Below, in pieces: positions 5,308 through 48,638 of a stretch of DNA of 64,000 nt (position 1 is its first letter; every line of letters starts with the position of its first letter). Source of the DNA: an uncultured delta proteobacterium (lineage in GTDB: Bacteria; Desulfobacterota; Binatia; Binatales; Binataceae); assembly GCA_963734845.1 (NCBI GenBank), contig CAVTIS010000008.1:236419-300418 (forward strand), in the 5' to 3' direction. Below the pieces are notes generated by a model. The model had not been told where the DNA came from and did not search any database. It was given only the letters and a program-made list of their open reading frames with translations. The position numbers were made by a program, and so were the translations under genes.

Positions 5308-5330
5308 AGCCTGCGGCGCGGCGAGAAGCA

Positions 5331-6170: not shown

Positions 6171-6274
6171 ATGGTGGGAACTTGGGGGGCAGGCCAGGGC
6201 TCGTCGACGACCGGGCGCGATGACCCTGGGTTCGGGCCGAAGTTTCGGGGGAAGTCGCGCGCGTTGTCACTGCA

Positions 6275-6907: not shown

Positions 6908-7026
6908 CAAATGACCTCGGTTTCTTTCGAAGGCGCGTGTGAGCACCGGGTGCTCGCAAAGATCAGGACGCTATTGGCGATCGCCGAATTAGCAAATGCT
7001 GATCGCTAATATATTGACGCCAGCTC

Positions 7027-9824: not shown

Positions 9825-10351
9825 ACCAGAAGCCCACCGGGAAGAACGCCGCCGTCACTTCCTTGGCCCTGCCCAATATCGCTAAGCTAATCGCAGACGG
9901 CGAAATCACCGTTGGCGTGCTTCGTCCCATTGGTTGTGTCGCCACCGCCACCGACAGGCATAATTGCCTGGCCATGCTGGTCCGCCGCCGGGGCGAAACC
10001 TTGACCCAGTTGCTGACGCGGCTCGATCTGGCTATAGCCAAAGCGTTCACCGAAGACATCTTCACTGACGAAGTCAACCCGCCATCGACGACCTCCTGAA
10101 GCAAGGCCGTTCCGCTTCCCTCCCGAATCGATGTTCACCTTCTTCGGAATACCACTTCGTATCTATAGACCTTGTCAACACGGCCTACTCCGGACGCTTA
10201 CGGCTAAAATGGGTTCCTTCCAAGTGCAAGGAGCTTTGATTGGTGGTTGCGTATGCCGCCGGGCTCGACGCTGATTGGCGCTCATCCAGACAAATGGTAT
10301 CTCTCTCGGTCGGATACGCTGTCTGTCATTGGAGTACGTGAGGGGTCGATC

Positions 10352-12424
10352 ATGAGCGGTCCTAATCTTTACTTGGCCCGGCGCGCGTTGCTGGCAGTTT
10401 GCGTGTTCGCGATAGTGGGCCTCGCCTCGGTCCAGGCGGCCGATCTTGCCACCGCCGACCTGATGCGCCGGGCGCAGGCGGGAGACGCTGCCGCCCAGAC
10501 GAAGATTGGTGACTTCTATGAATACGGACAGGGCGGGCTGCCCAAGGATGAGAAGCAGGCCCTGTTTTGGTACCAGAAGGGGGCGGACCAGGGCGATGCG
10601 GGGGCGCAGAACTGGGTCGCCTTCTTTTATGAGAACGGCCGCGCTGGCCTCCCCAAGAGCGACGCACAAGCCGTCGTGTGGTATCGCAAAGCCGCGAATC
10701 AGGGCAATGCCTTTGCGATGGCCACCCTCGGCCTGTACTTCGAAGGTGGCTGGGGCGGTTTACCGAAGAGCGATGTGCAAGCGGCGGCGCTGTATCGCAA
10801 GGCGGCCGAGTTGGGCGACGCGGGCGCGCAGAAGTGCCTGGCGAATTTTTATCTCACCGGCAGCGGCGGCTTGCCCAAGGACGATGCACAGGCGCTGGCC
10901 TGGTTTCGCAAGGCCGCCGATCAGGGCAACGCCATAGCGCAAAACTGGGTCGGTGTCTTCTACGCCAATGGCCGCGGCGGACTGCGCAAGGACGAAGTGC
11001 AGGCCGCGGCTTGGTACCGCAAGGCCGCCGACCAGGGCAACGCCTATGCCCAATGCAACCTGGGCGTCCTTTACGAGGAAGGCCTCGGTGGCCTTCCTAA
11101 GGACGCCAAGCAGGCAGCGGCCCTTTACCGGCAGGCCGCCGACCAGGGCAATGCCGCTGCCCAAGAGAACCTTGGTCGTCTGTGCGTGTGGGGCGAGGGC
11201 GGCCTGCCCCGCGATGATGTCCAGGCGCTGTCATGGTTTCGCAAGGCGGCCGACCAGGGCAGTAACGTCTCACAGAATTGGGTTGGTATTTTCTATGTGG
11301 CGGGTCGCGGCGGCTTACCCAAAAATGACCAACAGGCGCTCGCCTGGTATCTCAAGGCTGCGGATCAGGGCAACATAGCCGCGCAAACCAATGTTGCCGC
11401 GTTTTACGAACAAGGCCGTGGTGGCTTGGCGAAGAACGATGTCCAGGCGCTGGCTTGGTATCGCAAGGCGGCAGCGGCCGGCGATGCCGGAGCGATCGAG
11501 GTTGTTGGAAGCTATTATCAAAATGGCCGCGGCGGCCTGCCCAAGGACGATCGCCAGGCGGCGACGTGGTACCGTAAGGCTGCCGATCTGGGCAATGCCG
11601 GCGCGGAAACAGACGTGGGCTTTTTCTACGCCAACGGTCGCGGTGGCCTGCCCAAGGACGATCGCCAGGCGGCGACGTGGTACCGCAAGGCCGCCGACCA
11701 AGGCGATGCCTGGGGCTCAAATGATTTGGCCGATTTCTACGAGGATGGACGAGGCGGCCTGCCGAAGGATGAAAAGCAGGCGGCGGCGCTGTACCGCCAG
11801 GCGGCGGACAAGGGCAATGCCTTGGCCTTAAACAGTTTGGGCATATTCTACGAGTATGGACGCGGCGGACTACCCAAGGATGAACGCCAGGCGGCGGTCT
11901 TGTATCGTCAGGCGGCGGACATGGGCAATGCCTATGCCCAAGCCGAGCTTGCCTTTTTCTACTTGAACGGTCGCGGTGGCCTGGCCAAAGACGAACGCCA
12001 GGCGGCGGTACTCTTTCGCAAGGCTGCCGACCAAGGCAGCGCCTACGCGCAGTCCAACCTCGGTTCTCTTTACTCGGTTGGCGGGGGAGGACTGCCCCGA
12101 GACGCTGTGCAAGCCGCGGCGTTGTTTCGCAAGGCTGCCGACCAGGGCAATGCGCCCGCCCAAAACAATCTTGGCGATTTTTATGCGAAAGGGCTCGGCG
12201 GCCTGCCCCGGGACGATGCAGAGGCGTTGGCCCTGTTTCGCAAAGCAGCCAGCCAGGGCAACGCGGCGGCGGAAAACTGGGTCGGTGTCTTCTACCATGA
12301 CGGTCGCGGCGGCCTCGCGGTAAACTACCCGGAGGCCATGGTCTGGTATCGCAAGGCGGCAGCGCAGGGCGACAGCAATGCCATCCGCAACATTTACCTG
12401 ATGGAGCATTCGGGGAGACGGTGA
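10352..12424 (+). CDS. secreted Sel1-like repeat (SLR/TPR-like) protein, ~690 aa with about 18 Sel1 repeats
   Basis: Repeated ~36-aa units 'A(Q)xxLGxFYxxGRGGLPKDxxQAxxWYRKAADQGNAxAQ'. ATG at 10352 has 'GAGGGG' 8 nt upstream and starts a signal peptide 'MSGPNLYLARRALLAVCVFAIVGLASVQAAD'. The called ORF start at 10247 is probably too far upstream. Confidence 0.9.
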   Translation: MSGPNLYLARRALLAVCVFAIVGLASVQAADLATADLMRRAQAGDAAAQTKIGDFYEYGQGGLPKDEKQALFWYQKGADQGDAGAQNWVAFFYENGRAGLPKSDAQAVVWYRKAANQGNAFAMATLGLYFEGGWGGLPKSDVQAAALYRKAAELGDAGAQKCLANFYLTGSGGLPKDDAQALAWFRKAADQGNAIAQNWVGVFYANGRGGLRKDEVQAAAWYRKAADQGNAYAQCNLGVLYEEGLGGLPKDAKQAAALYRQAADQGNAAAQENLGRLCVWGEGGLPRDDVQALSWFRKAADQGSNVSQNWVGIFYVAGRGGLPKNDQQALAWYLKAADQGNIAAQTNVAAFYEQGRGGLAKNDVQALAWYRKAAAAGDAGAIEVVGSYYQNGRGGLPKDDRQAATWYRKAADLGNAGAETDVGFFYANGRGGLPKDDRQAATWYRKAADQGDAWGSNDLADFYEDGRGGLPKDEKQAAALYRQAADKGNALALNSLGIFYEYGRGGLPKDERQAAVLYRQAADMGNAYAQAELAFFYLNGRGGLAKDERQAAVLFRKAADQGSAYAQSNLGSLYSVGGGGLPRDAVQAAALFRKAADQGNAPAQNNLGDFYAKGLGGLPRDDAEALALFRKAASQGNAAAENWVGVFYHDGRGGLAVNYPEAMVWYRKAAAQGDSNAIRNIYLMEHSGRR
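10480..12400 (+). repeat. array of ~108-bp imperfect tandem repeats encoding the Sel1 units
   Basis: Recurrent DNA blocks such as 'ggcggcctgcccaaggacga...caggcggcg...tggtaccgcaaggc(g/t)gccgaccagggcaatgcc'. Two adjacent units are near-identical around 11520-11700 ('GRGGLPKDDRQAATWYRKAAD' twice). Confidence 0.8.
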
Positions 12425-12666
12425 GCAGTGGCAATCGCGGCAACGCTCAGGCACCCGGCGGCGACATGCAGTTCTGCGACCGGGGCATCTCGAACGGGAT
12501 GAGTGGCTGCACGAATTGCGAAACTGGATCCACCCGGATCCCGCAACCGGCAAGCCCAATCACTGAGACGGCGCTGTGGTTAGCATATCTCCCAAGCCGG
12601 GTAGGTTGATCGATCTTTCTGGAGTTTGTGTTGAGGCTCATCTTGCGGCCAGGGACAGCGGGCATC

Positions 12667-12927
12667 ATGAGAGCTTCAGCGTTTGTTGCGGTTCTGATTT
12701 TCACGGTTGCGGGGTGTGCCGCGCAGCCGGTACCCTCCAGCATCGAGTCGGCCACAATGTCGGCGGACCGCACCATTACGCTCCGGCTGCGGGCACAAGA
12801 CGGCCGCGGTGCAACCGGCGATGGTGTTCTGGTTTATAGAACCGGCAGCCGGGATTTGGAAGAGGTCCTCGGCCACATCGGCGGGCTGAAGCCGGGCGAG
12901 CCAAAGCCCGTTCCGCCGTGGTCCTAG
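12667..12927 (+). CDS. small lipoprotein (86 aa)
   Basis: 'MRASAFVAVLIFTVAGCAAQ' is a signal peptide with lipobox L-x-x-C ('TVAGC'); lies directly downstream of the Sel1 gene. Confidence 0.5.
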   Translation: MRASAFVAVLIFTVAGCAAQPVPSSIESATMSADRTITLRLRAQDGRGATGDGVLVYRTGSRDLEEVLGHIGGLKPGEPKPVPPWS

Positions 12928-13061
12928 TCGGTGTTTGCAACGACGGGGGGAAAGCCGCTTTTGGTCGGAAGAGTAACTTCTCAGCGACAGCGATTCCGGG
13001 TGAAACCACTTGAATCGATCAGACTTGCTCGTCTTGATTGAGATGCAATGCTGGAGGGACC

Positions 13062-13703
13062 ATGGGACGTTGCATTGGACTGAGTTTCCGGCTGCTGCTG
13101 GTCATTGCATGCGTGGCCCAGGTACGGCTGACACCCGCAGTGGCGCAGGACGTCTTCAACGGCGGGAACCAAGGAGGCGGCAATCCCAATTGCCCGCCCC
13201 CGGTCATTAACGGGATCACGCCGAAAAATTGGTCGTGCCGGACCGGTCCCCAGTATTCCGAGGGAAATCCCGATTGCCCGCCCCCGGTCATACTCATCAA
13301 CGGTCAGCCGACGACGCCTAAGAACTGGTCATGCCCGGGCGGAATGTCCTCGGGTCGGAGCGGCCCCATCGGGCCACTTGAAACCCACCATCCCGGCCCG
13401 CCCTACGTTCCAGGCGCTGCCAATCCATGCCAGCCGGGAGGTCCCGGCAGTTATAACTGGCTTAACAATCCGGTGGGTACGCAATTGCCGCCGGGCTGCG
13501 TGCGCCCCCCCACCGGCACGACGACCACCGATGCGAAGAACGATCCGAGTTACCAAACCGCGCCGCCCGGCAGCTACATCGTGCCGCCTGTGGGGCCGCC
13601 CGGCAGCTACATCGTGCCGCCTGTGGGGCCACCCGGCAGCTACGTCGTGCCGTCTGCGGGACCGCCCGGCAGCTATGTCAATTCCACCGCTGGCCGGCGT
13701 TAG
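13062..13703 (+). CDS. secreted Pro/Gly-rich repeat protein
   Basis: ATG at 13062 preceded by 'GGAGGG'; signal peptide 'MGRCIGLSFRLLLVIACVAQVRLTPAVAQD'. Two 'NPNCPPPVINGITPKNWSC' / 'NPDCPPPVILINGQPTTPKNWSC' modules, then four 'PPGSY(I/V)VPPVG' units. Confidence 0.6.
   Translation: MGRCIGLSFRLLLVIACVAQVRLTPAVAQDVFNGGNQGGGNPNCPPPVINGITPKNWSCRTGPQYSEGNPDCPPPVILINGQPTTPKNWSCPGGMSSGRSGPIGPLETHHPGPPYVPGAANPCQPGGPGSYNWLNNPVGTQLPPGCVRPPTGTTTTDAKNDPSYQTAPPGSYIVPPVGPPGSYIVPPVGPPGSYVVPSAGPPGSYVNSTAGRR
13563..13694 (+). repeat. 33-bp direct tandem repeat x4 encoding PPGSY(I/V)VP(P/S)(V/A)G
   Basis: 'ccgcccggcagctacatcgtgccgcctgtgggg' repeated with few substitutions. Confidence 0.8.
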
Positions 13704-14229
13704 CCCGCCCAATCGAAGGCGCCATTGCTGAAGAACTAGCGTCGGCCCGACGTCGGATGCCGCCACCAGCGGCGCCACCACGGCCGCATCAACGCTATGC
13801 TCTCGGATGACTGGCGATAGGAAGCATCGCAATCGTTGATGTATTGCGCTGACCAGACTCCGCTGCCCAGTAGCGGTTCGCCATCCGCACTGTAAGAATT
13901 GTCCCAGCGACAGGACATGAGAATGAACCGACCGGCGGCCCAGGCCACAACCCCCAGTTCCGTAATCTCCAGTCCTTCGACCGGACCTTCAAAGGTATGG
14001 ACAGCCTCCTGCAGTGCCGCCTCCAGCATCTCCGCGCGCTGATATTTCGGCGCTTTCATGGTCCTGTTTACAACGCTCTAAAAGTGATCCATTCCGCGTT
14101 TTAAGAGCGATGCGTCCCGGCTGATAGTAGTTAGACAGTATCCACCGCCTTGAGGCGGCGTATATGTCCACAGCCACCGGGCGATCGACGACGCTTCCGG
14201 CTACCCGCATGTTCTATCGAAAATTCTAT

Positions 14230-14859
14230 CTATCGGCGGACACGGCTCGCCGTTTCCGGTTGTCCTGTCCCGGACGGCTCAGTCTGGCCCGATGCAGCAT
14301 TCGACGAATAGCGGCGCCACGCGGCAGTCCCAAGTTGTCCGGTCCAGGAACAAATATCGGAAGTCTGAAGCGAGTAAGTGCCCCCGTCTGTGTATCCATT
14401 GGTCGCTTTCAGCGACCAATGTCCGTTGCGGGCAGAAAACGCGCCCGCGGTGGGTGGAGCCCCGTCCCCGGCTTCACTATGAAAACTGTAGGTCCCGTCG
14501 CGATGGATTTCCCACACCCAAGGTCCACCATTCAGCGGGAGCTTCCAAGTGCCAACGAGGTTGGGGTCGACCCCGACGGGCTTCGACGGTTGTGACGTAC
14601 AGGGTCGCATTGCGTTCTGTGCCAGGAAGCATGGGTCGATATGGGGAACCGGACGACCACCACCGCCACCGCCACCACCGCCACCGGGACAAAAGGAGGC
14701 ATTCCCGTCCGTGCTGTCGTAGCAATTGGTTATTGGATTGTAGACTTGTGCCGATGCTGTAGGTTCCAGGGCTATAACGCCGAGTACAACCGCTACAGCG
14801 ACGCAGATGCACGTCATTCCTCGATGTACGACCCTGTCGATCACCCCGAACGTGTTCAT
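14230..14859 (-). CDS. secreted hypothetical protein with a Gly10 tract
   Basis: ATG at 14859 with 'AAGAGG' 8 nt upstream; signal peptide '...MTCICVAVAVVLGVIALEPTASAQ'; mature part rich in G/T/S/W with a G10 run. Confidence 0.5.
   Translation of the reverse strand: MNTFGVIDRVVHRGMTCICVAVAVVLGVIALEPTASAQVYNPITNCYDSTDGNASFCPGGGGGGGGGGRPVPHIDPCFLAQNAMRPCTSQPSKPVGVDPNLVGTWKLPLNGGPWVWEIHRDGTYSFHSEAGDGAPPTAGAFSARNGHWSLKATNGYTDGGTYSLQTSDICSWTGQLGTAAWRRYSSNAASGQTEPSGTGQPETASRVRR
14656..14685 (-). repeat. (GGT/GGC)10 simple-sequence tract encoding Gly10 within the secreted protein
   Basis: Plus-strand 'accaccaccgccaccgccaccaccgccacc'; trinucleotide repeats are prone to slippage. Confidence 0.7.
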
Positions 14860-15055
14860 CTTGCCGACCTCTTTTCGGAGCGCGTTTTGCTCGCTTAACC
14901 CGACATTCCCCAAATGGCCAATCTACCCAGCATCCGGACGAAAATAATAGCGCCTCCTGAGGCGGCGGAAAAGCGCACAAACGCCGTATTTCGTCCCTGG
15001 CCCACCTCGGGCCAGTCCTAATCTGCGTTTTGGAGTGAACTCCGAACTCACGCAA

Positions 15056-16093
15056 TTATGCCACGCCGTTCCTTCGCAGAGACGATGGAACGATCCGGTC
15101 GGCGATCGCGGACAAAATGGCTAAGAGCATAAGGTAAGCCTTATCAGCGGCCGTCGGAGACAGCATCAAAGATGGCGCCCCGTAAAGCCTAGTGCGAATA
15201 CCTGCTGGCGTAAAGCCGCTGCACCAGGCGAGCCCGTCCGACCATACTCGATCATTCCCAACTCTCGATCGTCGAATTGCAGCCGCCAGTGCCGCCCGAA
15301 ACCGCTGTTCGCCGAAGTAGGTTCCGACCGCTGCACATTCCGATATGCGAAGATAATCGCGCCCCGGCATGCCAACACGTCGCATCATACGCCGAAGAGC
15401 AGCCTGTTGCTGGGCGAAGGAGAATTTGTAAAGGCCGAGAAAACGCAGTTTTTCCTGCGGAATCGCCGTCTCGAGCCGGAACGCTACCGACCAATCGCGG
15501 CCCGCTTCGATGATGGTGAAATGGTCCATGAGGAAGTCCATTACTACCGGAAGATAGAAGGCGGTTGGGTGATAAAAATCCTGGTGAATTACGATCGATT
15601 TCTCCGGAATGAGATGCGGAAAAAATTCGGTCAGCACTTTGCCGCTCAGTGCAAGTGTTTTAGCGACGTCGACAAACAGTATCTCGATAGGCGTCTCTGA
15701 GGGCCAGCTTTCTTCGAGCAAGTCACCCGTATGAACTTCTATGAGATCGGCAAACTCCGCTGTGACGTGCCGAAAAATCGCGGCGAAAGACTGCCCCATC
15801 TCGACAGCCTCATCGAACTGCGTCCGGATGAAGTCCACCAAGTATGGCTCATTAGCAATGAAGCGATCATAGGAATGCAGGCGGTTCCCCGCGGCTCTTG
15901 GATTGTCCCTGAGACCCGCAGCGAGGCAACAGGTAGATGCTCCGCAAAAAGCACCGAGTTCAACCACCGCGCCCTCACCGGTGTATACATAGCGCGCCAG
16001 TTGATAAAGCAACTTACGCTCTTCCAGGCCGAGCAGGCCTAAGGCGTAACTCCCGGCTTGCGCATCGGGGGCGAGCCACGGCTTAGCGCTCAT
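15056..16093 (-). CDS. class I SAM-dependent methyltransferase (TylF/MycF / Methyltransf_24-like)
   Basis: 'VVELGAFCGASTCCLA' (motif I, G-x-G-like) and 'ILFVDVAKT' (acidic motif) resemble macrocin-O-methyltransferase-like enzymes. Confidence 0.55.
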   Translation of the reverse strand: MSAKPWLAPDAQAGSYALGLLGLEERKLLYQLARYVYTGEGAVVELGAFCGASTCCLAAGLRDNPRAAGNRLHSYDRFIANEPYLVDFIRTQFDEAVEMGQSFAAIFRHVTAEFADLIEVHTGDLLEESWPSETPIEILFVDVAKTLALSGKVLTEFFPHLIPEKSIVIHQDFYHPTAFYLPVVMDFLMDHFTIIEAGRDWSVAFRLETAIPQEKLRFLGLYKFSFAQQQAALRRMMRRVGMPGRDYLRISECAAVGTYFGEQRFRAALAAAIRRSRVGNDRVWSDGLAWCSGFTPAGIRTRLYGAPSLMLSPTAADKAYLMLLAILSAIADRIVPSSLRRNGVA

Positions 16094-16158
16094 CGTGCTG
16101 GACTTCTCTAGTTTCCATCGACAAACTCGATCGTCCTCCTCAAGGTCGGTGAATGGTG

Positions 16159-17034
16159 TTACGCCAAGGTTGGAACGAGCGCGGAGAACTCGGAGTCCTT
16201 CAATCGCCGGACGAGAGCGTCATAGTTCGAGAGCAATTGGGAGTACGGAATATTAATCGCTTTTTGCGGCCGTCCGTCATAGCGGAACTGAAAAGGGGCG
16301 TCGAGCGCCGTCGCGATGTTCCGTAAAGCTCCCGGGCGTTCGGGAATTTCCTGCCGGGAGCCAGCTCTCGCGAGGTCCTCGAGCAGGTTTTCATAGGGGC
16401 AATGGACCACTCGGCAGTCCCGCGTGGCTTTAAGGAAAACGTCGCGATGCCGAACGATTGTCCGCGCATACGCCAAGCATTCTGGAACATCGATCTGATA
16501 ACTCCGACCGATTACGGCACCATCATAGTTGTGCCAGAGGTTTCGCTGTGAGGCGATCAATGCCGAGATCGCGCAGTGAATTACATTTCTCGTGGTATGA
16601 ACCAGTGTAGCTCCACGAGATTGCAAATAAAATAAGAGAAATGGGAAAGAACTAGAATCCCAAGCGACTGGCGCAATGCGCGTCAGTTGATTGTATTTGA
16701 TATCAACGCCAAAGGCGTAGCAGTTGCTCTTCTTATTGCCTTCCCAATGATAGCGAATGCGATACCGTACAAATTCAAAATATTCGTCGAGGAATGACTC
16801 GGCGTCGCCGAAACTCCCCTGAAAAAAGCTGCGAGCCGGAAGGCTGCGGCAGTAGTTGTCCCAGTGGGCGGGCGCTGGGCTCGGTGTCAGCACTTCACCA
16901 AGCATTGCTATCCGTTCGTTAGTATTAAGGATTTCGCGCAATAGATTAGTGCCGGTTCGCTGAGCGCCGATTACCGCAAAAAGATGATTGCCACTGGCTC
17001 GTGAAGAAATATTATGGCCAGCCAAGACCCTCAT
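16159..17034 (-). CDS. sulfotransferase (PAPS-dependent)
   Basis: 'FAVIGAQRTGTNLLREIL' matches the 5'-phosphosulfate-binding loop (G-x-x-R/K-S/T-G-T-x-x-L); GC near 50%. Confidence 0.7.
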   Translation of the reverse strand: MRVLAGHNISSRASGNHLFAVIGAQRTGTNLLREILNTNERIAMLGEVLTPSPAPAHWDNYCRSLPARSFFQGSFGDAESFLDEYFEFVRYRIRYHWEGNKKSNCYAFGVDIKYNQLTRIAPVAWDSSSFPFLLFYLQSRGATLVHTTRNVIHCAISALIASQRNLWHNYDGAVIGRSYQIDVPECLAYARTIVRHRDVFLKATRDCRVVHCPYENLLEDLARAGSRQEIPERPGALRNIATALDAPFQFRYDGRPQKAINIPYSQLLSNYDALVRRLKDSEFSALVPTLA

Positions 17035-17134
17035 CGTTAAGCCACTGTCAGAATCTTACGGGCGCTCTGGTCAAGGCCTTGAGTCGTGAGTACCCCAGTT
17101 GATCGGTCGCGGCTACGGACACATCGAAACCCGG

Positions 17135-17995
17135 TCAAGTGGAACTGGAGTCGACGATCAGTCTCTCAACGGCCCGGCGGCTGCTTTCCCAAGCCGACCA
17201 GAATCGAGGTGAACCAGTTTCGATTCGGTCGGTAGCCAGGCAGCGGAGCCATAAGTACGCTTCCCGAGTGAGCGGACGGAGATTCGGACTCGTGTCAAAG
17301 TCGAATTCGTTGAAGAAGCTGTGACGCAAGTTCGGATTGAGAAACCTGCTGGCGAACTGCTCAATGCCAGCTTCTTCGGTATCACTTAGAGGGATTTTCA
17401 GACCGCGCACGATACGTTCAAGCTGCCGCCGCGGGTCCTCCATCACCAAATCATAGTCGGCAACGATGAATGGCCTGTTGGCGATCTTGCTTAGGTTTGG
17501 GACCATGTAACTTAACCACAGCAAGTGCGCTATTCCTGGATTCATGCCTTGGCGTTGTAATAGCGAAACAGCCACGCTCAACGGATTTCTGATTACCACC
17601 AAGTAGCATTCTTCCACTTCAAGACGATGGAGCACTGAGTGCCAGAAAGGCAATAGCCGAATAGTGCGCGGATCCTTGAAGCCCCAAAGCGGATGACTTG
17701 CGAAGGTGGATCTAAGGTATTTGACGGCGTCGGCGAGCAGAGCCCCGACTTCAGGTTCGCGCCATCGGGAATCGTCAATCAGTGTAACATCTTCCCACTT
17801 AAGTCCGAAGACGGTGAGGAGACGTTCGTTCAGCTCGCAAATGTTCTTATCTTCCCAATAACCAGTCGGGTTATCGGGCTGTGGGCTTAGAAAATTATTC
17901 CCCAGGTAGACGCCCAACATTTGCAGACCGCGGGCGAGGGCGCTGGTGCCGCTCCGATGCATTCCAAGTACCAGTACGGCGCGTGAGGATCGCAT
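17135..17995 (-). CDS. sulfotransferase (PAPS-dependent), paralogous type
   Basis: 'VLVLGMHRSGTSALARGL' 5'-PSB loop; also '...RNPL...' further along; GC near 50%. Confidence 0.7.
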   Translation of the reverse strand: MRSSRAVLVLGMHRSGTSALARGLQMLGVYLGNNFLSPQPDNPTGYWEDKNICELNERLLTVFGLKWEDVTLIDDSRWREPEVGALLADAVKYLRSTFASHPLWGFKDPRTIRLLPFWHSVLHRLEVEECYLVVIRNPLSVAVSLLQRQGMNPGIAHLLWLSYMVPNLSKIANRPFIVADYDLVMEDPRRQLERIVRGLKIPLSDTEEAGIEQFASRFLNPNLRHSFFNEFDFDTSPNLRPLTREAYLWLRCLATDRIETGSPRFWSAWESSRRAVERLIVDSSST

Positions 17996-18056
17996 ATCAA
18001 ATCAATCGGTCGACTCCTAGCGGGAATGAGCCGCTTGCCCCGCTTCGCCGTGGTCC

Positions 18057-20231
18057 TCAGCCGGTCACGGCTGGGCCCTGTTCTCCGCGCGAGAGCGGCG
18101 TGCCAATGTTAGCATCTCGCTCGAACTTCAATCCTTGGCCGAATTGCAGCACCTTTCGCAGCGTCTCCTCGATGGCAGGTGCCAGCTTGCGCCCGGGTAC
18201 TGTGTACGGCCGAGCGCTGCGAACCGCGTTTACCAGCGAGTGCACCATACTCTCCTGGTCTTGATCTTCGCGGTGCCAAATGAATACTTCCGGCATCGTT
18301 TCGATCCGCAGGCCCATTAGAGCCGCTTTGGAAAGAAGCTCCCAGTCGTCAAGGGTTGATACCGCTTCGTTGCTGAATCCCCCGATTGTCTCGAATGCAT
18401 CGCGTCGTACTAGGGCGTTGGTGCTGCCGAAGCAGTTGACGAAAGCCCCGGTAGCAGCATCCCCTCCGAGAAACGGACGGCGTGAGTGCTCGAGGAGGTT
18501 CTGCGACGATCCGTTGGAGGAGCCGAGGAAAAAGCTGATTGCCGAAGTCAAAATGTCGGCATCCACGCGTTGCGCAACCTGAACGAAGACCGAGATCGCA
18601 TTGGGAGCCAACAAAAGTGTGTGATCGTCGACGAAGAACAAGTATTCCCCTTTCGCCTCGCGAACCGCCGCATTTCTGCTTGCCCCAATCTCCTCACCGC
18701 GTCGAAAGATCCGGCGCATTTCGTGGCCATCGGAACCATTGGAATCAATCGACGAATTCGATGGCGAAAATTCCTCGCTTCCACACTCGGCCAAGATGAT
18801 CTCCAGATGCGGATAGTTCTGCTGCTTTAGCGAGGCCAATGTCGCCGCGGCGCCCTTCTCTCTGACATTGTAGGCGAAACATATGCTCACCACCGGGAAA
18901 ATTGATTCTCTGCCGCCCCGCCGAGGCTGACGAACAGGTTGTTTGTGCTTGGCTTGATTCGGGAGGCTGACATGCAGATCCACCCATTTGCGTGCGTTGT
19001 CGGCGAATGAGGCCGATGGGCGCGCCGAAAAGGCACCTTGGTCGAGTGCGGCCCGGAGACGTTCAGCCAGAACGTCGGGCCTCGGCTCGAAGCAGACGTT
19101 TTCTATGTCGGAGGAGTCCATAATTTCTGGAATCCCTCCAACATTGCTAGCCAGCAATGGTACACCCGCGCCCACGCATTCCAGCACCGTGTTGGGATAA
19201 TTATCGGCGAGTGACGAGATCACCGCTAACCGTCCAGCTCCTTTAAGGTACTCGATTGCTGCTTTCTGATACTTATTGGAAACAATGTGCCACGGAACGG
19301 ACCAAGCCTTGGATCGGTCGCTGATGTAGCCGATACTCGAACGACCGTAAAGCTGAGTTTCTTTGCCTAGAAAGGTGACTTCAAACTTGCGATTGGCGCG
19401 GTCGGAGCAAAGTTGATCGACCGCATCGCAAAAGAGTTTGAGCCCTTTTCTGATCTCCAATCGTCCGAAGAATACTAATTCACGAATCTCATTTTTCCGG
19501 GGACCCGGCGCGGGACCTTCTGAGAGCAGCCCTTGGGGAAGAACATATGGCGCAACGTAAGTCCGTTCAGGAAGTTCCCAGCCATTTCCTTGCATCCAGC
19601 GAAGAAGATATTGGCTCGGACTCGTGACGATATCCGCGGCTGAGATGCTCACGCGTTCCATAAAATCAATCTCAAGCTCTCCGAGATTGCGTATGTAATC
19701 CTGGCTGCCCTCTTTCACCCAAAATGTCGGACCGTGGGCACTAATCACGAAGGTCGTGTCACCGAAAGCAAGTCCTTGGCGCTTTGCGAGCAAGCTGTAA
19801 AACCCCAGGCCCTGACATTCCGGAAAGTGAATGATATCGAAATCGTGCTGATGTTCCTTCAGCCAAGCATACGTGTGATAGGACACGCTGGAGGCCCAGG
19901 CAGCATGAATTCTGGGCTCATGAGCCATGGGCAGCGGAATCAACTTCAGGCCTTTCTCTTTCTGGTAATAGTCGACCCAATCAATCATGTTTCCGTCGGT
20001 AGGATGACACCCGAGAAGGAAAAGGATAGTCACGTCGTAGCCGGCCCGCTTCAGGGCGTCGGCGAGACTCGTGTAGGCGGTACCGATACCAGCATTGCGA
20101 GACGGCCCCTCGATTTCCCACGAAGCGATGCAGACGCGTGGAAGGCTGGAACCGTGGGGGACGTCAACCTCGGGCAATGGCGGAAACGTAGCGGACATCG
20201 ATCTTCCTCTCCTTGGTGGATCCGGCGACAA
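18057..20231 (-). CDS. bifunctional glycosyltransferase: N-terminal GT4 (GT-B) domain fused to C-terminal GT2 (GT-A) domain, 724 aa
   Basis: N-half '...RVCIASWEIEGPSRNAGIGTAYTSLADAL...NTVLECVGAGVPLLASNVGGIPEIM' is GT4. C-half 'PVVSICFAYNVREKGAAATLASLKQQNYPHLEIILAECGS...GASRNAAVREAKGEYLFFVDDHTL' is GT2 with a DxD motif. Confidence 0.8.
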   Translation of the reverse strand: MSPDPPRRGRSMSATFPPLPEVDVPHGSSLPRVCIASWEIEGPSRNAGIGTAYTSLADALKRAGYDVTILFLLGCHPTDGNMIDWVDYYQKEKGLKLIPLPMAHEPRIHAAWASSVSYHTYAWLKEHQHDFDIIHFPECQGLGFYSLLAKRQGLAFGDTTFVISAHGPTFWVKEGSQDYIRNLGELEIDFMERVSISAADIVTSPSQYLLRWMQGNGWELPERTYVAPYVLPQGLLSEGPAPGPRKNEIRELVFFGRLEIRKGLKLFCDAVDQLCSDRANRKFEVTFLGKETQLYGRSSIGYISDRSKAWSVPWHIVSNKYQKAAIEYLKGAGRLAVISSLADNYPNTVLECVGAGVPLLASNVGGIPEIMDSSDIENVCFEPRPDVLAERLRAALDQGAFSARPSASFADNARKWVDLHVSLPNQAKHKQPVRQPRRGGRESIFPVVSICFAYNVREKGAAATLASLKQQNYPHLEIILAECGSEEFSPSNSSIDSNGSDGHEMRRIFRRGEEIGASRNAAVREAKGEYLFFVDDHTLLLAPNAISVFVQVAQRVDADILTSAISFFLGSSNGSSQNLLEHSRRPFLGGDAATGAFVNCFGSTNALVRRDAFETIGGFSNEAVSTLDDWELLSKAALMGLRIETMPEVFIWHREDQDQESMVHSLVNAVRSARPYTVPGRKLAPAIEETLRKVLQFGQGLKFERDANIGTPLSRGEQGPAVTG

Positions 20232-20425
20232 TCAAAGGTGGCCTTCATCCGCATAACCAATCAGACGACGTGGGCACAAGTACAAGTTTTCTTCAAGCAA
20301 ATCAAGAGATTTTTTATGAAAATATCGAAAGGCGACTGGAGATGAATACGGTGGCCTTCGTTGGTTGATGCCCGTTTGGACGAAAAGCGTTTGTCCCGGA
20401 TGCGATCCTCGCGTACTGTGTCGCG

Positions 20426-21181
20426 ATGCTCGTCACCGTCGAGCGTTTGACGAAAACCTATGGCAGTTTCAAGGCCGTTGACAACGTATCCTTCGTCGTC
20501 CAAGCGGGAGAAATTGCCGGCCTTGTCGGTCCCAATGGAGCCGGCAAGACGACCATCATTCACATCATGCTGGGTCTGATCTCGCCCAACGCGGGTGCGG
20601 TGCGCCTGTTTGGGAGGAGCCTGGAAACGGATCGCGAGCAAATACTCCAGCGATTGAATTTCACGACGCCATACATGGCATTCCCGGTCCGGTTGACGGT
20701 GCTCGAGAACTTGAGGGTCTTCGCCAAAATATACAACGTTCGTGACCCGGTGGCGAAAATCAGTGAGTTGCTGGAGCGATTCGGCATCGGGCATCTGAAG
20801 AACAAGCCGGTCTCGCGGTTGTCCTCCGGCGAGGCTACGCGGGTGGGGCTATGCAAGGCATTTCTGAATGATCCGGAATTGTTGTTGCTGGATGAGCCGA
20901 CGGCTTACCTTGACCTTCAGGCGGCGCTGCAGGTGAGAGGCGTTCTGCTTGAGTTACAGCGGAGCCGAGGGACAACGATTTTCTATACCTCGCACAACAT
21001 GCTCGAGGTCCAGCGCATGTGCAACCGAATCATTTTTCTCAATCGTGGAACGGTCATCGCAACCGGGACACCGATCGAAGTAACCCGCAAGATCCTGAAG
21101 GAGAACCGCGACGCGCCCGCTCTCGACGAGGTCTTCATCCGCATTGCTGGGCGTCAGTCAGATGAAGCCGTCGCGAATTAG
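20426..21181 (+). CDS. ABC transporter ATP-binding protein (Wzt/KpsT-like, ABC-2 exporter)
   Basis: Walker A 'GPNGAGKTT', signature 'LSSGEATRV', Walker B 'LLLLDEPTAYLD', H-loop 'TSHNM'. Confidence 0.9.
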   Translation: MLVTVERLTKTYGSFKAVDNVSFVVQAGEIAGLVGPNGAGKTTIIHIMLGLISPNAGAVRLFGRSLETDREQILQRLNFTTPYMAFPVRLTVLENLRVFAKIYNVRDPVAKISELLERFGIGHLKNKPVSRLSSGEATRVGLCKAFLNDPELLLLDEPTAYLDLQAALQVRGVLLELQRSRGTTIFYTSHNMLEVQRMCNRIIFLNRGTVIATGTPIEVTRKILKENRDAPALDEVFIRIAGRQSDEAVAN

Positions 21182-21950
21182 CGCCGTCGTCCTGCGGCAT
21201 GCCTACGAAGTGCGCCGCAACGCGAACCACATCACTTACATGGTGTACTGGCCGGTGGTGAATATCGCGGTCTGGGGGTTCTTCACACTCTACCTGCGCC
21301 ACGGCGACCGCCTGCGGCCTGGAGTGATCAGTTGCCTGCTCGGGGCAGTCATCTTGTGGGGACTGTTCAATGCTTTCCAACGCGACATGGCGGTCGGTTT
21401 TCTGGAAGAACTGTGGTCACGGAATCTGGTTAGCCTCTTTGCTTCACCTTTGACTATTTCAGAATACGTGACCGGCTTGATCCTCGTGACGGCCGCCAAG
21501 GCAATGGTTGGCTTGATGGTCGAGTCGCTGATCGCGTGGATTTTCTATCACTACAATATCTTCCCGATGCTGCCGAAATTAATTCCGTTCATCCTGAACC
21601 TGGCTCTGTTTGCGCTCACGATCGGCATCGCGGTAACCGGCTTGATCTTCCGCTACACCACGAAGTTCCAGGCGATGGCGTGGAGCTTCGCCGGCATACT
21701 GATGCCATTGTCGTGCGTTTTCTATCCGTTGAGTTCGTTGCCGAGCTTCCTACGCCCGACGGCCTCCATACTCCCTACTGCCCACGCTTTCGAAGGTATG
21801 CGAGAAGCTATCGAAAGAGGCGCGTTTTCGGCATCGCATTTCAAATCGGGGTTGGAACTTAACGTGATCTACTTTATCCTCGCCATCGGCTTCTTCCGAT
21901 GGATGTTCGAGTCGGCGCGATCGCGAGGATTGTTGGTAAAGATGGAATAG
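21144..21950 (+). CDS. ABC-2 type transporter permease (Wzm/KpsM-like), 6 TM
   Basis: Hydrophobic 268-aa protein overlapping the ATPase gene by 38 nt; typical ABC-2 exporter pairing. Confidence 0.8.
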   Translation: MLGVSQMKPSRISAVVLRHAYEVRRNANHITYMVYWPVVNIAVWGFFTLYLRHGDRLRPGVISCLLGAVILWGLFNAFQRDMAVGFLEELWSRNLVSLFASPLTISEYVTGLILVTAAKAMVGLMVESLIAWIFYHYNIFPMLPKLIPFILNLALFALTIGIAVTGLIFRYTTKFQAMAWSFAGILMPLSCVFYPLSSLPSFLRPTASILPTAHAFEGMREAIERGAFSASHFKSGLELNVIYFILAIGFFRWMFESARSRGLLVKME

Positions 21951-22219
21951 TTCACCCGGCGAATCGATCTTCGCCTGCGCTCGAGCGCAGGAACAGGCGG
22001 TCAATCTCTGCTAGTTCACGCCCCTCGACAGCCTTGTATGTAGCGAATGCAGTAGAATCGACAGACGTAAGGCGGCAGGCCGGTGCAGCCTTGGAGAAGA
22101 CACCCCGTCTAGCAGCGAAGGTCGCCGTGCCATCACGGCGGCGCTCAAGCCCGAACGGTTGCAAGGGAAAGAAATCCCGGATCGCAAGGCGGGGCAAGCC
22201 ACGCTGAGGAGGGTGAAAC

Positions 22220-22774
22220 ATGGAGGAGATGAAACGGTTTGTCGGGATCGACGTCGCCAAGGCGGCATTGGACGTGTTCATCGGATCCGCCGGCGGGGCC
22301 TTTTCAGTGGCTAATGATGAGGTCGGAATCCGGGAGTTACTGAGACAGCTGGAGCCGGCTGACTTTGTGATTCTTGAAGCCACCGGTGGCCTGGAAACTC
22401 CCGTCGCCAGTGCCCTGGCGGCTGCGGGAATCGCAGTGGCGATAGTTAATCCACGCCAGGTGCGAGACTTTGCCCGCGCCACCGGCAAGCTGGCCAAGAC
22501 TGACCGGCTGGATGCCGAGGCGCTGACTCGGTTCGGTGAGGCGGTTCGACCAGAAGCACGGCCGTTAGCCGACGAGCAGGCCCAGGCGCTTGGAGCACTG
22601 GTTACCCGGCGGCGCCGGTTGGTCGAGATGCTGACCGCGGAGAAGAATCGCCGGGCCAGAGCTCCAAAGGTTTTACACCGTAGCATCGATGAGCAGCCCG
22701 TCAGAGGCTTTCGCAGTCATAGTCGTTCTGCTCGTAGCCATCGTTTTAGCTTCAGTTCGACGGAGATGACCTGA
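22220..22774 (+). pseudogene. IS110-family transposase, N-terminal DEDD domain only (C-terminal half missing or degenerate)
   Basis: 'FVGIDVAKAALDV...VILEATGGLETPVASALAAAGIAVAIVNPRQVRDFARATGKLAKTDRLDAEALTRFGE...LVTRRRRLVEMLTAEKNRRAR' matches the IS110 N-terminal domain; the sequence then decays into low-complexity text. Confidence 0.75.
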
Positions 22775-23254
22775 AACTAAGGGCCCCTCTCGATTTCCAA
22801 AACCGGGCCACCTCGCCCCCGGATTAAGGCCAGTACCTATTTCCGGCGATGATGGCAGCCCGGGCTCGCGGAGCATTTGGGGCTGTCGGACCGGGCGGTC
22901 CGCAAGGCGGCAGGCGGCCCATGCATGAAAAAGCAGGTTGCTCCGTCTGAGGTTCCCGGCCCACGTCAGGGCTTAATATGCCTCAGGTGTTCGGCGCAGC
23001 CTGCTTCCTGGATTCTGCTCTAACACAGAAGATGTCGAACGCGCTAATGCCCTGTGAGCGGTGGGCAGCCGCGACGCTGCCAACCCCCGGCGGAGCGCTC
23101 TGGAAGCTCTCAGAATGAGCGCATGATCAACGCGCCCCATTGCGGAGATGAAGGGGAATCAAGTTGTTTTGACGCGAGACGCTGCTTGCTGAGACGCTCC
23201 GACCAGGCACAGAGGTTCTTCAATGAAACTAAAGCGTCTGAAGGCGAAGTGCTA

Positions 23255-23695
23255 TCAGCATCCGCATAAAGATGCTGTCCGCAAAATCCGTACTGTCTGG
23301 CTTTGCCAAGCTTGCGTTCTCGAATTGGAACAACTTAACCGCCCAATTAGGCCGGGCCGCGCGAAGATGATCGCCTTCACCTCGTCAAGGCGTCGCGCCA
23401 TCGCCTCGGCAATTTCGTTGAGATGCTCCAGCGATGCGATAGCGTGATCGAGCAGGGGCTCAGCCGACGTGTGGCCCTCAGAGGCTGCGCAGTGAGCGTC
23501 CCCGAGCTCTCGGTTGGCCTCGTTGGTGATTGCCACCAGCGCCTGCATGCGTCCAGTTAGCTCTCGCAAGATCGACGAATGCAGACTGCCGGTGGTCGCC
23601 TTCCACCGCATGGTGATCGCCGGAAGCGTCTTGCCAAGGTAGTCCCTCGTCTTAGCTACGAGGACCCCTCGCTTGTTCTCGATGGTATCAGCCAT
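23255..23695 (-). CDS. hypothetical protein (146 aa)
   Basis: ORF only; helical-looking; no motif recognised. Confidence 0.25.
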   Translation of the reverse strand: MADTIENKRGVLVAKTRDYLGKTLPAITMRWKATTGSLHSSILRELTGRMQALVAITNEANRELGDAHCAASEGHTSAEPLLDHAIASLEHLNEIAEAMARRLDEVKAIIFARPGLIGRLSCSNSRTQAWQSQTVRILRTASLCGC

Positions 23696-24593
23696 CAGTG
23701 ATGAGGATGCCCTTTCCTAGCATCCGAAGCACGCGCTCGGATGGAATTTCACGCATTTCGTTAGTTATCAAGGTTACCAATCCTTCACATTGGCACGTGA
23801 TCGCGCGTCAAAGACTTTACAGCGGTAAATTAAAGGCGCATAGGTTCGGTAAACTAGACTAAGTTGCGCGAGCAGGGGGCTGCGATGAGGATTTTCGTAC
23901 GCTCTCAATATGCGAATGATTCGCCCGACGAGAGCGTGCGAAGGGCCTTTGAAGTTCTCCATGATTCCAAGGTCTTTTCGGTACGTGCTGGCGGGAGCTT
24001 CGGAGACAGACCCGTGGTCTTGGTCGATGCGAGAGAGGTGACAGAGGCGCTTGCAGCGCTCGAATCTGCCGGACTCCAATGGCCAACTTAGCGCGCCATT
24101 CTAAAAGAGACCGACGGCCCTTCGATTTCTTAGCTGCCTCTGCTCGATGACAGGCATGAAGCTGCAGGACGTTTGTACTTGCGGACATCAACGCGCCGCT
24201 CATTACGAAAATAAACCATCCCGGGTCAGTCCGGCTAAGACGAACTGCGCTCTCTGCTACTGCGCGCAGTTCAAAGTGGCACGGAAACACCCCCTAGAGT
24301 GCAAATGGTGAGTGCAGGCAGCATGGCTTCGTATATACATGGGCCATGGGCCGACGCAGAGAACGCCACGCACAAGAAGCCCACTACCCCTTCGAAAGAG
24401 TCAGGCCTATCGGGCAGTCCGCCGTCGTCTGCCCGAAGTGCGAGAAGCTTGTGTCTACCCCCGAGCGATTGGTTGAGCATTTCCCCCAAGTGTCGGTCTG
24501 ATGAGCGCCGGCCGTTTTGACTAGTGGCAGGCCGAGAGTAAGGGACTGTTATTGGTGCGATGATGTGCGCGGACCAGGCGGAGCGGAGGAAGA

Positions 24594-26006
24594 ATGAGGC
24601 TCGAGGAACTGACGATCGGCGAGGCGGGGGCAGCGCTTCGCCGCGGCGAGATGACGGCGGCCGCCTACGCCGAGGCGCTGCTCGAGCGCTGCGCCAGGGT
24701 GGCGTCGCTCAACGCCTTCATCGCGCAGGATGCGGCCACGGTGAGGTCCGCGGCGCGGCGCGCCGACGAGGCGCGGAAGGCGGGCGGTCCCCTGGGGCCC
24801 CTCCACGGCGTGCCGCTCGCGATCAAAGACAACGTCGATACCGCGGATCTGCCGACGACCGGCGGCACAGCGGGTCTCAAGGCAAACCGGCCGAAGCGGA
24901 ACGCGCCCGTCGCGCAAAAACTCCTTGACGCCGGCGCCATCTTGTTCGGCAAGGCCAACCTGCACGAGCTTGCCTTCGGCGTCACGAACAACAACAAATC
25001 CTTCGGGGCCGCGCGCAACCCATACGATCCGTCGCGCATTCCCGGTGGCTCGAGCGGCGGGACCGCGGCGGCTGTGGCGGCGCGGTTGGTACCCGGCGGG
25101 ATCGGCTCGGACACGGGCGGCTCGGTGCGCATTCCGGCGGCGCTCTGCGGAATTGTCGGCTTCCGCCCGACGACGGGGCGCTGGTCCGCCGCCGGCGTCG
25201 TCCCGATCTCGCCCACGCGCGACACGCCCGGCCCCATGACGCGCAGCGTCGCGGATTGCGTCCTGCTCGACGGCATCGTCACCGGCGGGGCCACCGCCCT
25301 CGCGCCCGCCACGCTCCAGGGAATGAGACTCGGCGTGCCCCGCGGCTATTTCTGGGAGAACCTCGACGGCAATCTGGCGCGCCTTCTGGAGGATGCGCTG
25401 GCGCGGCTGCGCGATGCTGGCGCCGTGCTCGTCGAGGGCGACGTCGTCGATGTGGGGCGGCTCAACAATGCCGCCACCTTCCCCATCGCGCTCTACGAGG
25501 TAGTGCGGTCGCTCAAGGCCTATCTCACCTCGCACGAGGTCGGACTCGATCTCGCCGGCCTCATAGCGGCGGTCAAGAGCCCGGACGTGAAGGACGTGCT
25601 CGAGGCCGCGACTGGCGCCGGCGCTGTGTCGGAGGCGGCATATCGCGAGGCGCTCAAGAATCGCGCGGCGCTACAGGAGAGTTTTCGTCGCTATTTTCGA
25701 GAGCACAGCGTGACCGTCGCGCTCTTGCCCACGACGCCGCTGCCAGCCGCAAAGATCGGCGAGGACGAGACTACGCTCTTGAACGGCGCCGCGGTGCCGA
25801 CCTTCCCGACCTTCATCCGCAATACCGACCCTGGCAGCGTCGCCGGCGTCCCGACGCTGAGCCTGCCGGCAGGGATCACGAAGGCGGGGCTTCCGGTCGG
25901 GCTCGAGCTCGATGGGCCGGAAGGCAACGACTATCAGGTGCTTGCGGTGGGCTGTGCCATCGAGGCCGTGCTGCCAAAGCTGCCGGCACCTCCATTTCCG
26001 AAGTGA
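24594..26006 (+). CDS. amidase (amidase-signature family)
   Basis: 'GGSSGGTAAAVAA' GGSS(G/S)G signature, 'PLAIKDNVDT' catalytic Lys region, typical N-terminus 'LTIGEAGAALRRGEMTAAAYAEALL'. Confidence 0.9.
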   Translation: MRLEELTIGEAGAALRRGEMTAAAYAEALLERCARVASLNAFIAQDAATVRSAARRADEARKAGGPLGPLHGVPLAIKDNVDTADLPTTGGTAGLKANRPKRNAPVAQKLLDAGAILFGKANLHELAFGVTNNNKSFGAARNPYDPSRIPGGSSGGTAAAVAARLVPGGIGSDTGGSVRIPAALCGIVGFRPTTGRWSAAGVVPISPTRDTPGPMTRSVADCVLLDGIVTGGATALAPATLQGMRLGVPRGYFWENLDGNLARLLEDALARLRDAGAVLVEGDVVDVGRLNNAATFPIALYEVVRSLKAYLTSHEVGLDLAGLIAAVKSPDVKDVLEAATGAGAVSEAAYREALKNRAALQESFRRYFREHSVTVALLPTTPLPAAKIGEDETTLLNGAAVPTFPTFIRNTDPGSVAGVPTLSLPAGITKAGLPVGLELDGPEGNDYQVLAVGCAIEAVLPKLPAPPFPK

Positions 26007-48635: not shown

Positions 48636-48638
48636 GGT

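Follow-up and report, generated by a model that had tools for sequence, protein, structure and literature searches.

A family-wide Binataceae gene cassette with two sulfotransferases, a didomain glycosyltransferase and an ABC-2 exporter: candidate pathway for an exported sulfated, methylated glycoconjugate

Genes at the locus

The stretch of DNA analysed here (the window) is 64 kb of contig CAVTIS010000008.1 from an uncultured member of the Binataceae. It contains a compact block at 15046-21950 with six genes, which are predicted to encode a methyltransferase (MT), two sulfotransferases (ST1 and ST2), a glycosyltransferase (GT) and the two subunits of an ATP-binding cassette (ABC) exporter. 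The cassette is a candidate biosynthesis-and-export unit for a sulfated, methylated glycoconjugate. An open reading frame (ORF) listing recovered all six cassette ORFs, together with a neighbouring insertion sequence (IS) ORF of the IS110 type, at the coordinates that a sequence-only reading of this DNA had assigned to them.

The four enzyme genes form an operon on the reverse strand. The MT gene (15056..16093, 345 aa) lies at its distal end and is preceded by ST1 (16159..17034, 291 aa), ST2 (17135..17995, 286 aa) and the GT gene (18057..20198, about 713 aa; the open frame extends to 20231, 724 aa). The exporter operon is on the forward strand and consists of the ATPase gene (20426..21181, 251 aa) and the permease gene (21162..21950, 262 aa; the frame is open from 21144). 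The AT-rich intergenic region between the two operons (20199..20425) is presumed to hold two divergent promoters, and a regulatory role may be suggested for it. No sigma-70-like sites above chance were found in this region, and a promoter and terminator scan gave no more than the shuffle expectation. A search of Rfam over 12000-25000 found no family at 20199-20425; its sole match is sub-threshold and lies at 22067-22157. The IS110 transposase remnant (22220..22774, forward strand) flanks the cassette and is outside the pathway.

The block has a guanine-cytosine (GC) content of 54.8%, the lowest of any 6.9-kb stretch of the window (mean 61.0%, sd 2.7). The dip reported earlier is therefore real, but the neighbouring DNA has a GC content of 60-63%, not 65-70%, and the contrast is about 6 points rather than 10-15. 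The GC content of third codon positions is 0.57-0.61 in the four enzyme genes, 0.72-0.73 in the two pump genes and 0.67-0.85 in ordinary genes of the window.

Two sulfotransferase families

ST1 and ST2 are predicted to be sulfotransferases dependent on 3'-phosphoadenosine-5'-phosphosulfate (PAPS), ST1 by profile, motif and fold and ST2 by motif and fold. ST1 has a 5'-phosphosulfate-binding loop GAQRTGT and a 3'-phosphate-binding motif R149-x7-S157. An alignment of 19 sequences shows that G23, Q25, R26, T27, G28, T29, R149 and S157 are invariant and that A24 is nearly so. The corresponding motifs in ST2 are GMHRSGT and R136-x7-S144, and their residues do not vary among the orthologues aligned; for the leading glycine this can be scored in the full-length alignment (A3) only. 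Both proteins thus have the G-x-x-R-(S/T)-G-T loop that the sequence-only reading had noticed, together with the R-x7-S motif and a predicted sulfotransferase fold. The curated profiles separate the two. ST1 scores 39.3 bits on Sulfotransfer_3, above the gathering cut-off of 27, but ST2 stays just below the cut-offs with 23.4 bits on Sulfotransfer_3 and 20 bits on Sulfotransfer_1. Nineteen of 20 ST2 orthologues match Sulfotransfer_3 at E<=0.01 (best 3.8e-9).

PDB searches with ST1 and ST2, by sequence and by profile, returned nothing meaningful, and the folds were then predicted. The AlphaFold2 model of ST1 has a mean predicted local distance difference test (pLDDT) score of 80.5. Its top 22 Foldseek matches in the PDB are all sulfotransferases with a probability of at least 0.94 (1.00 for the top 15) and template-modelling (TM) scores of 0.3-0.5. 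They include tyrosylprotein sulfotransferases, M. smegmatis Stf0 with trehalose (1tex), M. avium Stf9 and cytosolic SULTs, as well as NDST and an olefin-synthase sulfotransferase domain. Nucleotide kinases rank only below the sulfotransferases. For ST2 the top 50 matches are all sulfotransferases, so neither protein is likely to be a misread P-loop kinase. It is only the linkage to the GT gene that points to a sugar as the substrate of either enzyme.

The two proteins had been described as paralogous, which could not be upheld. An hhalign comparison of the two families aligns only 16 P-loop columns with a probability of 0.5%; therefore, ST1 and ST2 are not recognisable paralogues. The ST1 search yielded 303 homologues, and the best 120 of these are 63-78% identical to ST1, barring one shorter call of the same gene at 100%. 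The ST2 search yielded 2570, and the ST2 family is broader than, and different from, that of ST1. Every taxon-named homologue in both searches belongs to Ca. Binatus or Binataceae, and the ST1 family appears nearly restricted to Binataceae. ST1 orthologues are named 'LPS sulfotransferase NodH' in Joint Genome Institute (JGI) annotation. ST1 and ST2 represent two new sulfotransferase families.

Methyltransferase and didomain glycosyltransferase

The MT is 81% identical to its Ca. Binatus orthologue. Methyltransf_24 (PF13578; 37.6 bits, E 4.4e-9) is the only Pfam family reported for it at E<=0.01, and the TylF profile is not matched. The earlier 'TylF-like' label consequently holds at the level of a class I methyltransferase but not at that of the TylF family. 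Residues 321-339 form a hydrophobic or amphipathic C-terminal helix that is conserved in the orthologues. The only PDB sequence match (E 3e-4) is 6g7d, annotated as 'Methyltransferase domain protein'; this is presumably the M. hassiacum sugar 1-O-methyltransferase MeT1.

The GT is 83% identical to its Ca. Binatus orthologue over the full length. Alignment with the orthologues suggests that the true start is the ATG at 20198, which gives 713 aa. The protein had been read as a 724-aa GT-B plus GT-A fusion, and the fusion stands while the length probably does not. Pfam places a GT4 domain, with its N- and C-terminal parts, at residues 48-416 and a GT2 domain (Glycos_transf_2) at residues 453-657. 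The GT-B domain retains E-x7-E, and the GT-A domain retains both DDH (the DXD motif) and the LDDWE catalytic region. At residues ~478-485 of the GT2 domain, ECGS stands in place of the canonical DDGS nucleotide-binding motif (GCGP in the relative P0251), which possibly hints at an unusual sugar-nucleotide donor. The GT2 domain matches NCBIfam models of the EpsD, MftF and WcaA types.

An exhaustive HMMER search at E<=1e-30 found 1804 cluster representatives related to the didomain protein. Most of the best 150 of these align both domains in one stretch at ~32-45% identity; a few are fragments or match through the GT4 part only, and many lie within proteins of 1000-2700 aa. Relatives with taxon names come from Acidithiobacillus, Nitrospirota, Syntrophobacteraceae, Myxococcales, Verrucomicrobiota, Phycisphaerae and Terriglobales. 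They are often named 'O-antigen biosynthesis protein' by JGI, and a Phycisphaerae contig (L032) has a homologue in a lipopolysaccharide (LPS)-like cluster with an MsbA-like ABC transporter. Fusions in these relatives add further GT2 domains, tetratricopeptide repeats (TPR) and, in P0266, an N-terminal Methyltransf_24 domain. BLASTP found no significant similarity between this domain and the window MT, so the link holds at the Pfam-family level only. Judged by its sequence relatives, the GT4-GT2 didomain is a widespread and probably general glycan-building module.

The ABC-2 exporter

The ATPase has an ABC_tran domain (105 bits) and the permease an ABC2_membrane domain (44.3 bits). The sequence-only reading had called the pump a Wzm/Wzt exporter. 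A divergently transcribed ABC-2 permease and ATPase are indeed present, but the family label does not fit. The best NCBIfam models of the ATPase are DrrA (187.8 bits), RbbA, GldA, a PQQ-system ABC protein and NodI (148.5 bits), all below their curated cut-offs (312 for DrrA, 521 for NodI), and its best PDB sequence matches are ABCA4, ABCA1, Rv1218c, NosF and LptB. No Wzt, TagH/TarH or KpsT entry is found among its top 25 NCBIfam families or the best 60 of 196 PDB matches. At 251 aa the ATPase also has no C-terminal extension and no Wzt carbohydrate-binding domain. Some Wzt proteins have no extra C-terminal domain either; its absence lowers the likelihood of Wzt membership and does not exclude it. 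JGI names the protein 'ABC-2 type transport system ATP-binding protein'.

The permease probably starts at the ATG at 21162 by alignment with its orthologues, which leaves a 20-nt overlap with the end of the ATPase gene. It has several hydrophobic segments and matches generic ABC-2 models and, weakly, DrrB models (27.7 bits against a cut-off of 223); the ABC2_membrane match is shared with DrrB, NodJ and many other permeases. Sequence and profile searches of the PDB with the permease gave no match. No other cassette protein is as conserved (mean column identity of the permease 88% among orthologues), which argues for a specific cargo. The sequence comparisons support a pump of the ABC-2 class that would be nearest to the DrrAB, NodIJ and ABCA types.

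Conservation across the family

One genome per GTDB species was scanned with the window GT. This found 24 loci with a GT at 71-88% identity, in genomes labelled Binataceae or in metagenome-assembled genomes labelled 'delta proteobacterium', 'Deltaproteobacteria bacterium' or 'proteobacterium', which are taken to be Binataceae under an older labelling of the lineage. Mapping by tblastn shows the order permease-ATPase followed divergently by GT-ST2-ST1-MT in nearly all of the 24 loci. All six genes are detected at the thresholds used in at least 17 of the 24, and the remainder are mostly contig-end or threshold failures. The six window genes are intact and 70-83% identical to their Ca. Binatus orthologues. 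The same gene order therefore recurs in the relatives, and the cassette is, by its gene content, apparently a family-wide feature of Binataceae (phylum Binatota). Conserved flanking partners were sought across 26 loci and none were found. Since no flanking gene family is common to more than ~5 loci, the cassette itself is the conserved unit.

Many of the related cassettes are longer than the window copy. Four further genes come after the MT gene in Ca. Binatus (L001-L003). They encode a protein of 362-381 aa without a Pfam match, an SxtJ protein (146 aa), a DUF5989 protein (49 aa) and a carbamoyltransferase (610 aa); the last three match SxtJ, SxtK and SxtI in size. The 362-381-aa protein is found in ~17 species and the full carbamoyl module in ~10 species. 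The presence of this SxtI/J/K-like module suggests that the products of the family would be sulfated, methylated and, in some species, carbamoylated. A search of the whole window by tblastn found no 381-aa protein, SxtJ, DUF5989 or carbamoyltransferase. The region below 15046 was considered as a degraded cassette tail, and this was rejected since tblastn with the long-cassette genes found none there.

The closest relative (L028-L030) has an ST2 that is 97% identical to that of the window and carries two cassettes 6 kb apart. The first (L028 1-2662) is the end of a long-type copy with ST1, MT and the unknown protein. The second (L028 6060-12935, copy B) is a short copy like that of the window, with ST2, GT, MT and pump intact and ST1 split into ORFs of 116 and 83 aa, an apparent pseudogene. 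The DNA identity between copy B and the window is 90-96% over exactly 15046-21950, with nothing beyond, and the homology ends within 10 bases of the outermost stop codons. Beyond the block, the relative has Lcl_C and rve_3 genes; in the window, one flank looks non-coding and the other bears the IS110 remnant. Trees of the GT, MT and permease each cluster the window with copy B, joined by L022 in the GT tree; in the MT tree the other MT of L028 groups with L024. The window copy is the short version and belongs to a second cassette lineage. It has been moved or duplicated as a module, and the region around it is rearranged and rich in IS sequences.

The IS110 ORF has the DEDD domain (PF01548, 78 bits; NCBIfam NF033542) and spans only model positions 1-148 of 343, and no frame contains the C-terminal half. 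The element is a remnant, as had been proposed, and not a complete transposase. Direct or inverted repeats bounding the block were sought, and only short chance-level matches were found; a plasmid megablast of 14000-23000 gave no match.

Proposed pathway and product

The following pathway is proposed. At the inner membrane, on its cytoplasmic side, the soluble GT would use its retaining GT4 and inverting GT2 domains to attach two different sugars to an acceptor. The two unrelated PAPS-dependent sulfotransferases would then sulfate two different positions, and O-methylation of the glycan would fall to the Methyltransf_24 enzyme, whose C-terminal helix may anchor it to the membrane. In species with long cassettes O-carbamoylation may also take place before export. 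The divergently transcribed ABC-2 pump would carry the finished molecule across the inner membrane. GT, ST1 and ST2 have no transmembrane or hydrophobic segments. PAPS and S-adenosylmethionine are cytoplasmic; therefore, all decoration would precede export, which would account for the retention of a dedicated ABC exporter beside the enzymes. The order of the steps, the carbohydrate substrate, the type of acceptor and the membrane tether are inferences.

A pathway for an exported sulfated, methylated glycan, as first proposed for this DNA, agrees with the domains found. A self-contained biosynthesis-and-export cassette for such a glycoconjugate is considered probable, with moderate confidence. 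The likelihoods given to this and the other readings were assessed one by one and do not strictly partition the possibilities. A slight preference is given to a lipid-linked glycan chain as the acceptor or product over a small glycolipid or oligosaccharide.

Several findings weigh against this interpretation. Genes for a priming phosphoglycosyltransferase, nucleotide-sugar synthesis, PAPS synthesis and outer-membrane export are absent from the cassette and from the scanned ORFs of the 64-kb window. The same is true of lipid-carrier, chain-termination and ligase genes, and no such genes or priming genes were found in the flanks of the related loci; these functions are possibly encoded elsewhere in the genome. 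The AlphaFold2 model of ST2 is of low confidence (pLDDT 67.5). The closest folds of the sulfotransferases are split between tyrosylprotein sulfotransferases and trehalose sulfotransferase Stf0, Stf1 and Stf9, and the TM-scores to the tyrosylprotein sulfotransferases and Stf0 reach only 0.4-0.5. The GT2 domain has no canonical DDGS, which makes the donor, and even activity, uncertain. In one Binataceae species (L016, 7457-12640) the pump, GT and MT keep their usual arrangement but both sulfotransferases are missing, a natural non-sulfating variant. Together with the broken ST1 in copy B of L028, this suggests that sulfation is dispensable in some lineages. Finally, distant didomain relatives lie in flagellar loci of Lacunisphaera (L031) and of a second contig (L033), so the GT family is not tied to an exported polysaccharide.

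A second reading, possible though doubtful, is that the product is not a polymer but a small secreted or outer-leaflet glycolipid or oligosaccharide, in which a disaccharide on a lipid or other aglycone would be exported in a DrrAB/NodIJ-like manner. By analogy this could resemble Nod-factor or mycobacterial sulfoglycolipid export, with carbamoylation in some species. A single GT with two catalytic domains is consistent with a small molecule, as is the absence of a priming enzyme, chain-length regulator, ligase or sugar-nucleotide gene from the cassette and the 24 related loci. The best matches of the ATPase are to DrrA, NodI, ABCA and Rv1218c types, which are exporters of lipids, drugs or lipochitooligosaccharides, and the Wzt carbohydrate-binding domain is missing. 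The trehalose sulfotransferase Stf0 is among the closest folds, and sulfate, methyl and carbamoyl enzymes with an ABC-2 pump parallel NodH, NodS/NoeI, NodU/NolO and NodIJ. However, the DrrA and NodI scores are far under the family cut-offs, and there is no linked acyltransferase, lipid-synthesis gene or NodA/B/C-like gene. The didomain relatives are annotated as O-antigen enzymes, occur in loci of an LPS-like or flagellin-glycan kind and carry fused TPR and additional GT domains, which is typical of chain builders. A more specific form of this idea is held still more tentatively: a previously unknown small glycolipid or oligosaccharide, doubly sulfated, O-methylated and in some species carbamoylated, could serve as a Nod-factor-like signal or surfactant made by unrelated enzymes. 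If so, long and short cassettes duplicated in one genome would yield different chemotypes.

The low GC content and the IS110 remnant had suggested horizontal acquisition. The corresponding reading is a recently acquired foreign island with a classical Wzm/Wzt O-antigen-type pathway, brought in from outside the lineage by IS-mediated transfer. It may draw on the low GC of the block, the IS110 remnant at one end, the IS3-type integrase fragments and restriction endonuclease 7-13 kb away, the sharp homology limits between flanks unrelated to those of the closest relative, and the two copies in that relative. It is nevertheless very improbable. The cassette is shared by the 24 Binataceae species genomes, the host contig is itself Binataceae, and every taxon-named ST1 and ST2 homologue belongs to the same family. 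The cassette has a GC content of 54-59% in every related locus, with flanks of 54-66%, and since the low GC is found in every species this composition goes back to the ancestral cassette of the family. Surface-glycan loci commonly show low GC. The block has no bounding repeats, and the ATPase is not Wzt-like. What remains of the earlier suggestion is the variable, IS-rich context and the sharp boundaries, and transfer or duplication of the cassette within the family is possible.

The least probable reading, given hardly any weight, is that the glycan is placed on a cytoplasmic protein such as flagellin and that the pump is unrelated or exports the modified protein or peptide: homologues of the GT do lie near flagellin genes, an adenosine 5'-phosphosulfate (APS)-kinase-methyltransferase fusion, HisH/HisF-like genes and a TPR/GT41 protein in L031 (2743-3948 and 9001-11421), which suggests a sulfated or methylated flagellin glycan there, and among flagellin and flagellar genes in L033 (4516-11448), both ST1 and ST2 find their nearest folds in tyrosylprotein sulfotransferases, and flagella are encoded in Binatota genomes (PMC8262859), but in Binataceae the pump is always linked, divergently transcribed and the most conserved component, none of the 24 loci has a flagellar gene in its flanks, and flagellin glycosylation needs no ABC exporter.

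Relation to known systems

ABC-dependent synthesis of a sulfated polysaccharide is already known. Cobetia marina KMM 1449 has an ABC-dependent capsule with sulfotransferase genes in the cluster and a product that is chemically proven to be sulfated (PMC11766843). That cluster has ~70 genes, including KpsMTED export, KpsSC priming, sugar-nucleotide and cysNC/cysD/cysQ PAPS genes (PMC11766843). The Binataceae cassette would share with it cytoplasmic assembly by glycosyltransferases, PAPS-dependent sulfotransferases and ABC export, on the Binataceae side as read from genes alone. It differs in having 6-10 genes without Kps export or priming, sugar-nucleotide or PAPS genes, a DrrA/NodI-like rather than KpsT-like ATPase, and two unrelated sulfotransferases with a methyltransferase and, in some species, a carbamoyltransferase.

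In rhizobia NodH, NodS/NoeI, NodU/NolO and NodIJ provide sulfation, methylation, carbamoylation and ABC-2 export of Nod factors. The cassette has the same decoration chemistries and an ABC-2 exporter, and the NodI model is among the best matches of the ATPase. In contrast to the Nod system, the glycosyltransferase is a GT4-GT2 didomain, and the NodI score is 148 bits against a cut-off of 521. No domains of the NodC chitin-oligosaccharide synthase, NodB deacetylase or NodA acyltransferase were found in the cassette or the scanned window ORFs. Unlike rhizobia, the host is an uncultured member of the Binatota with no indication of symbiosis.

Some Wzm/Wzt pathways use multidomain glycosyltransferases or methyltransferase chain terminators, as in E. 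coli O8/O9a (WbdA/WbdD) and Geobacillus (WsaE). The cassette resembles these in its ABC-2 permease, its multidomain GT and a methyltransferase that could cap the chain. It differs from them in the absence of the ATPase tail, of a coiled-coil terminator-kinase and of priming or ligation genes nearby. To our knowledge, sulfation does not act as a chain terminator.

Two further systems share single components. The ST1 fold has mycobacterial Stf0 (1tex) among its nearest matches, and the sole PDB match of the MT is presumably MeT1, which belongs to the methylmannose polysaccharide pathway of mycobacteria (PMC9883506). Sequence identity to these enzymes is 12-20%, so there is no orthology. That polysaccharide is cytoplasmic and not exported, and mycobacterial sulfolipid export uses MmpL, not ABC-2. 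SxtI, SxtJ and SxtK act together in O-carbamoyl transfer in saxitoxin clusters (PMC2679770). The long cassettes carry a triad of the same sizes (610-aa Carbam_trans, 146-aa SxtJ and 49-aa DUF5989); unlike in the saxitoxin clusters, the module is linked to GT and sulfotransferase genes rather than to alkaloid biosynthesis, and it is missing from the window copy.

Sulfated glycans and glycolipids are rare in bacteria and attract interest as heparin-like bioactives, for cell-surface charge and as determinants of phage and host interaction. The Binataceae are uncultured and abundant in soils and peat. The cassette is a minimal portable unit of six genes in 6.9 kb that is conserved across this family. 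It predicts a family-wide surface or secreted chemotype that is undescribed for Binatota (PMC8262859); among the papers searched, none links Binatota or Binatia with sulfotransferases or polysaccharides, and that account of the phylum is silent on it. The new elements are the minimal family-wide cassette, the two sulfotransferase families, the uncharacterised and widespread GT4-GT2 didomain, the non-Wzt pump and the optional SxtIJK module. The compactness of the cassette makes heterologous expression directly feasible as a test. The locus also gives a caution, in that low GC and an IS remnant did not mean recent foreign origin here.

Neighbouring DNA

The window has a second, separate glycan cluster on the reverse strand (45094-55751) with ~60-69% GC per kb. 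It contains five or six GT4 genes, one GT2 gene, two Methyltransf_11 genes and a low-molecular-weight phosphotyrosine phosphatase gene. A GH15/trehalase-like gene (43258-45072) adjoins it.

Another low-GC patch (52-57%) lies at 1-8019 and consists of unannotatable ORFs, an REase-ARP restriction endonuclease gene (1532-2359) and IS3-type integrase fragments (3996-4619 and 5331-6170). An IS3-type transposase like that at 5241-6167 abuts the cassette in L009 (16356-17461). Between this patch and the cassette, 2.6 kb from the latter, is a gene for a 725-aa protein of 17 Sel1 repeats (10247-12424), which has no counterpart beside the cassettes of other loci. The intervening DNA (12425-15045) has only ORFs without a family match, including a Trp/Arg-rich low-complexity ORF, and no homology to the cassette tails of the relatives. 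It includes a 33-bp tandem repeat of 3.5 copies (13562-13675).

On the other side of the cassette, the sub-threshold Rfam match at 22067-22157 is to the twister-sister family (22.9 bits against 34, E 0.38) and falls in a 270-nt non-coding stretch upstream of the IS110 remnant. IS110 elements carry a guide (bridge) RNA upstream of the transposase gene. The twister-sister match is probably due to chance.

One large signalling protein is encoded in successive separate ORFs on the reverse strand at 29400-33267, which suggests a disrupted gene or assembly frameshifts. The pieces include a double zinc ribbon with adenylate cyclase (32641-33267), AAA_16 (31567-32493) and TPR (29965-30507). Intact proteins of this adenylate-cyclase/AAA/TPR family (~1150 aa) flank the cassette in L008, L012 and L013. 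They were considered as a partner of the cassette and rejected, since they belong to an expanded signalling family.

Two amidase-signature genes are located at 24594-26006 and 34256-35701. The first has a GC content of 70% and scores 619.5 bits on the NCBIfam indoleacetamide-hydrolase model (cut-off 532).

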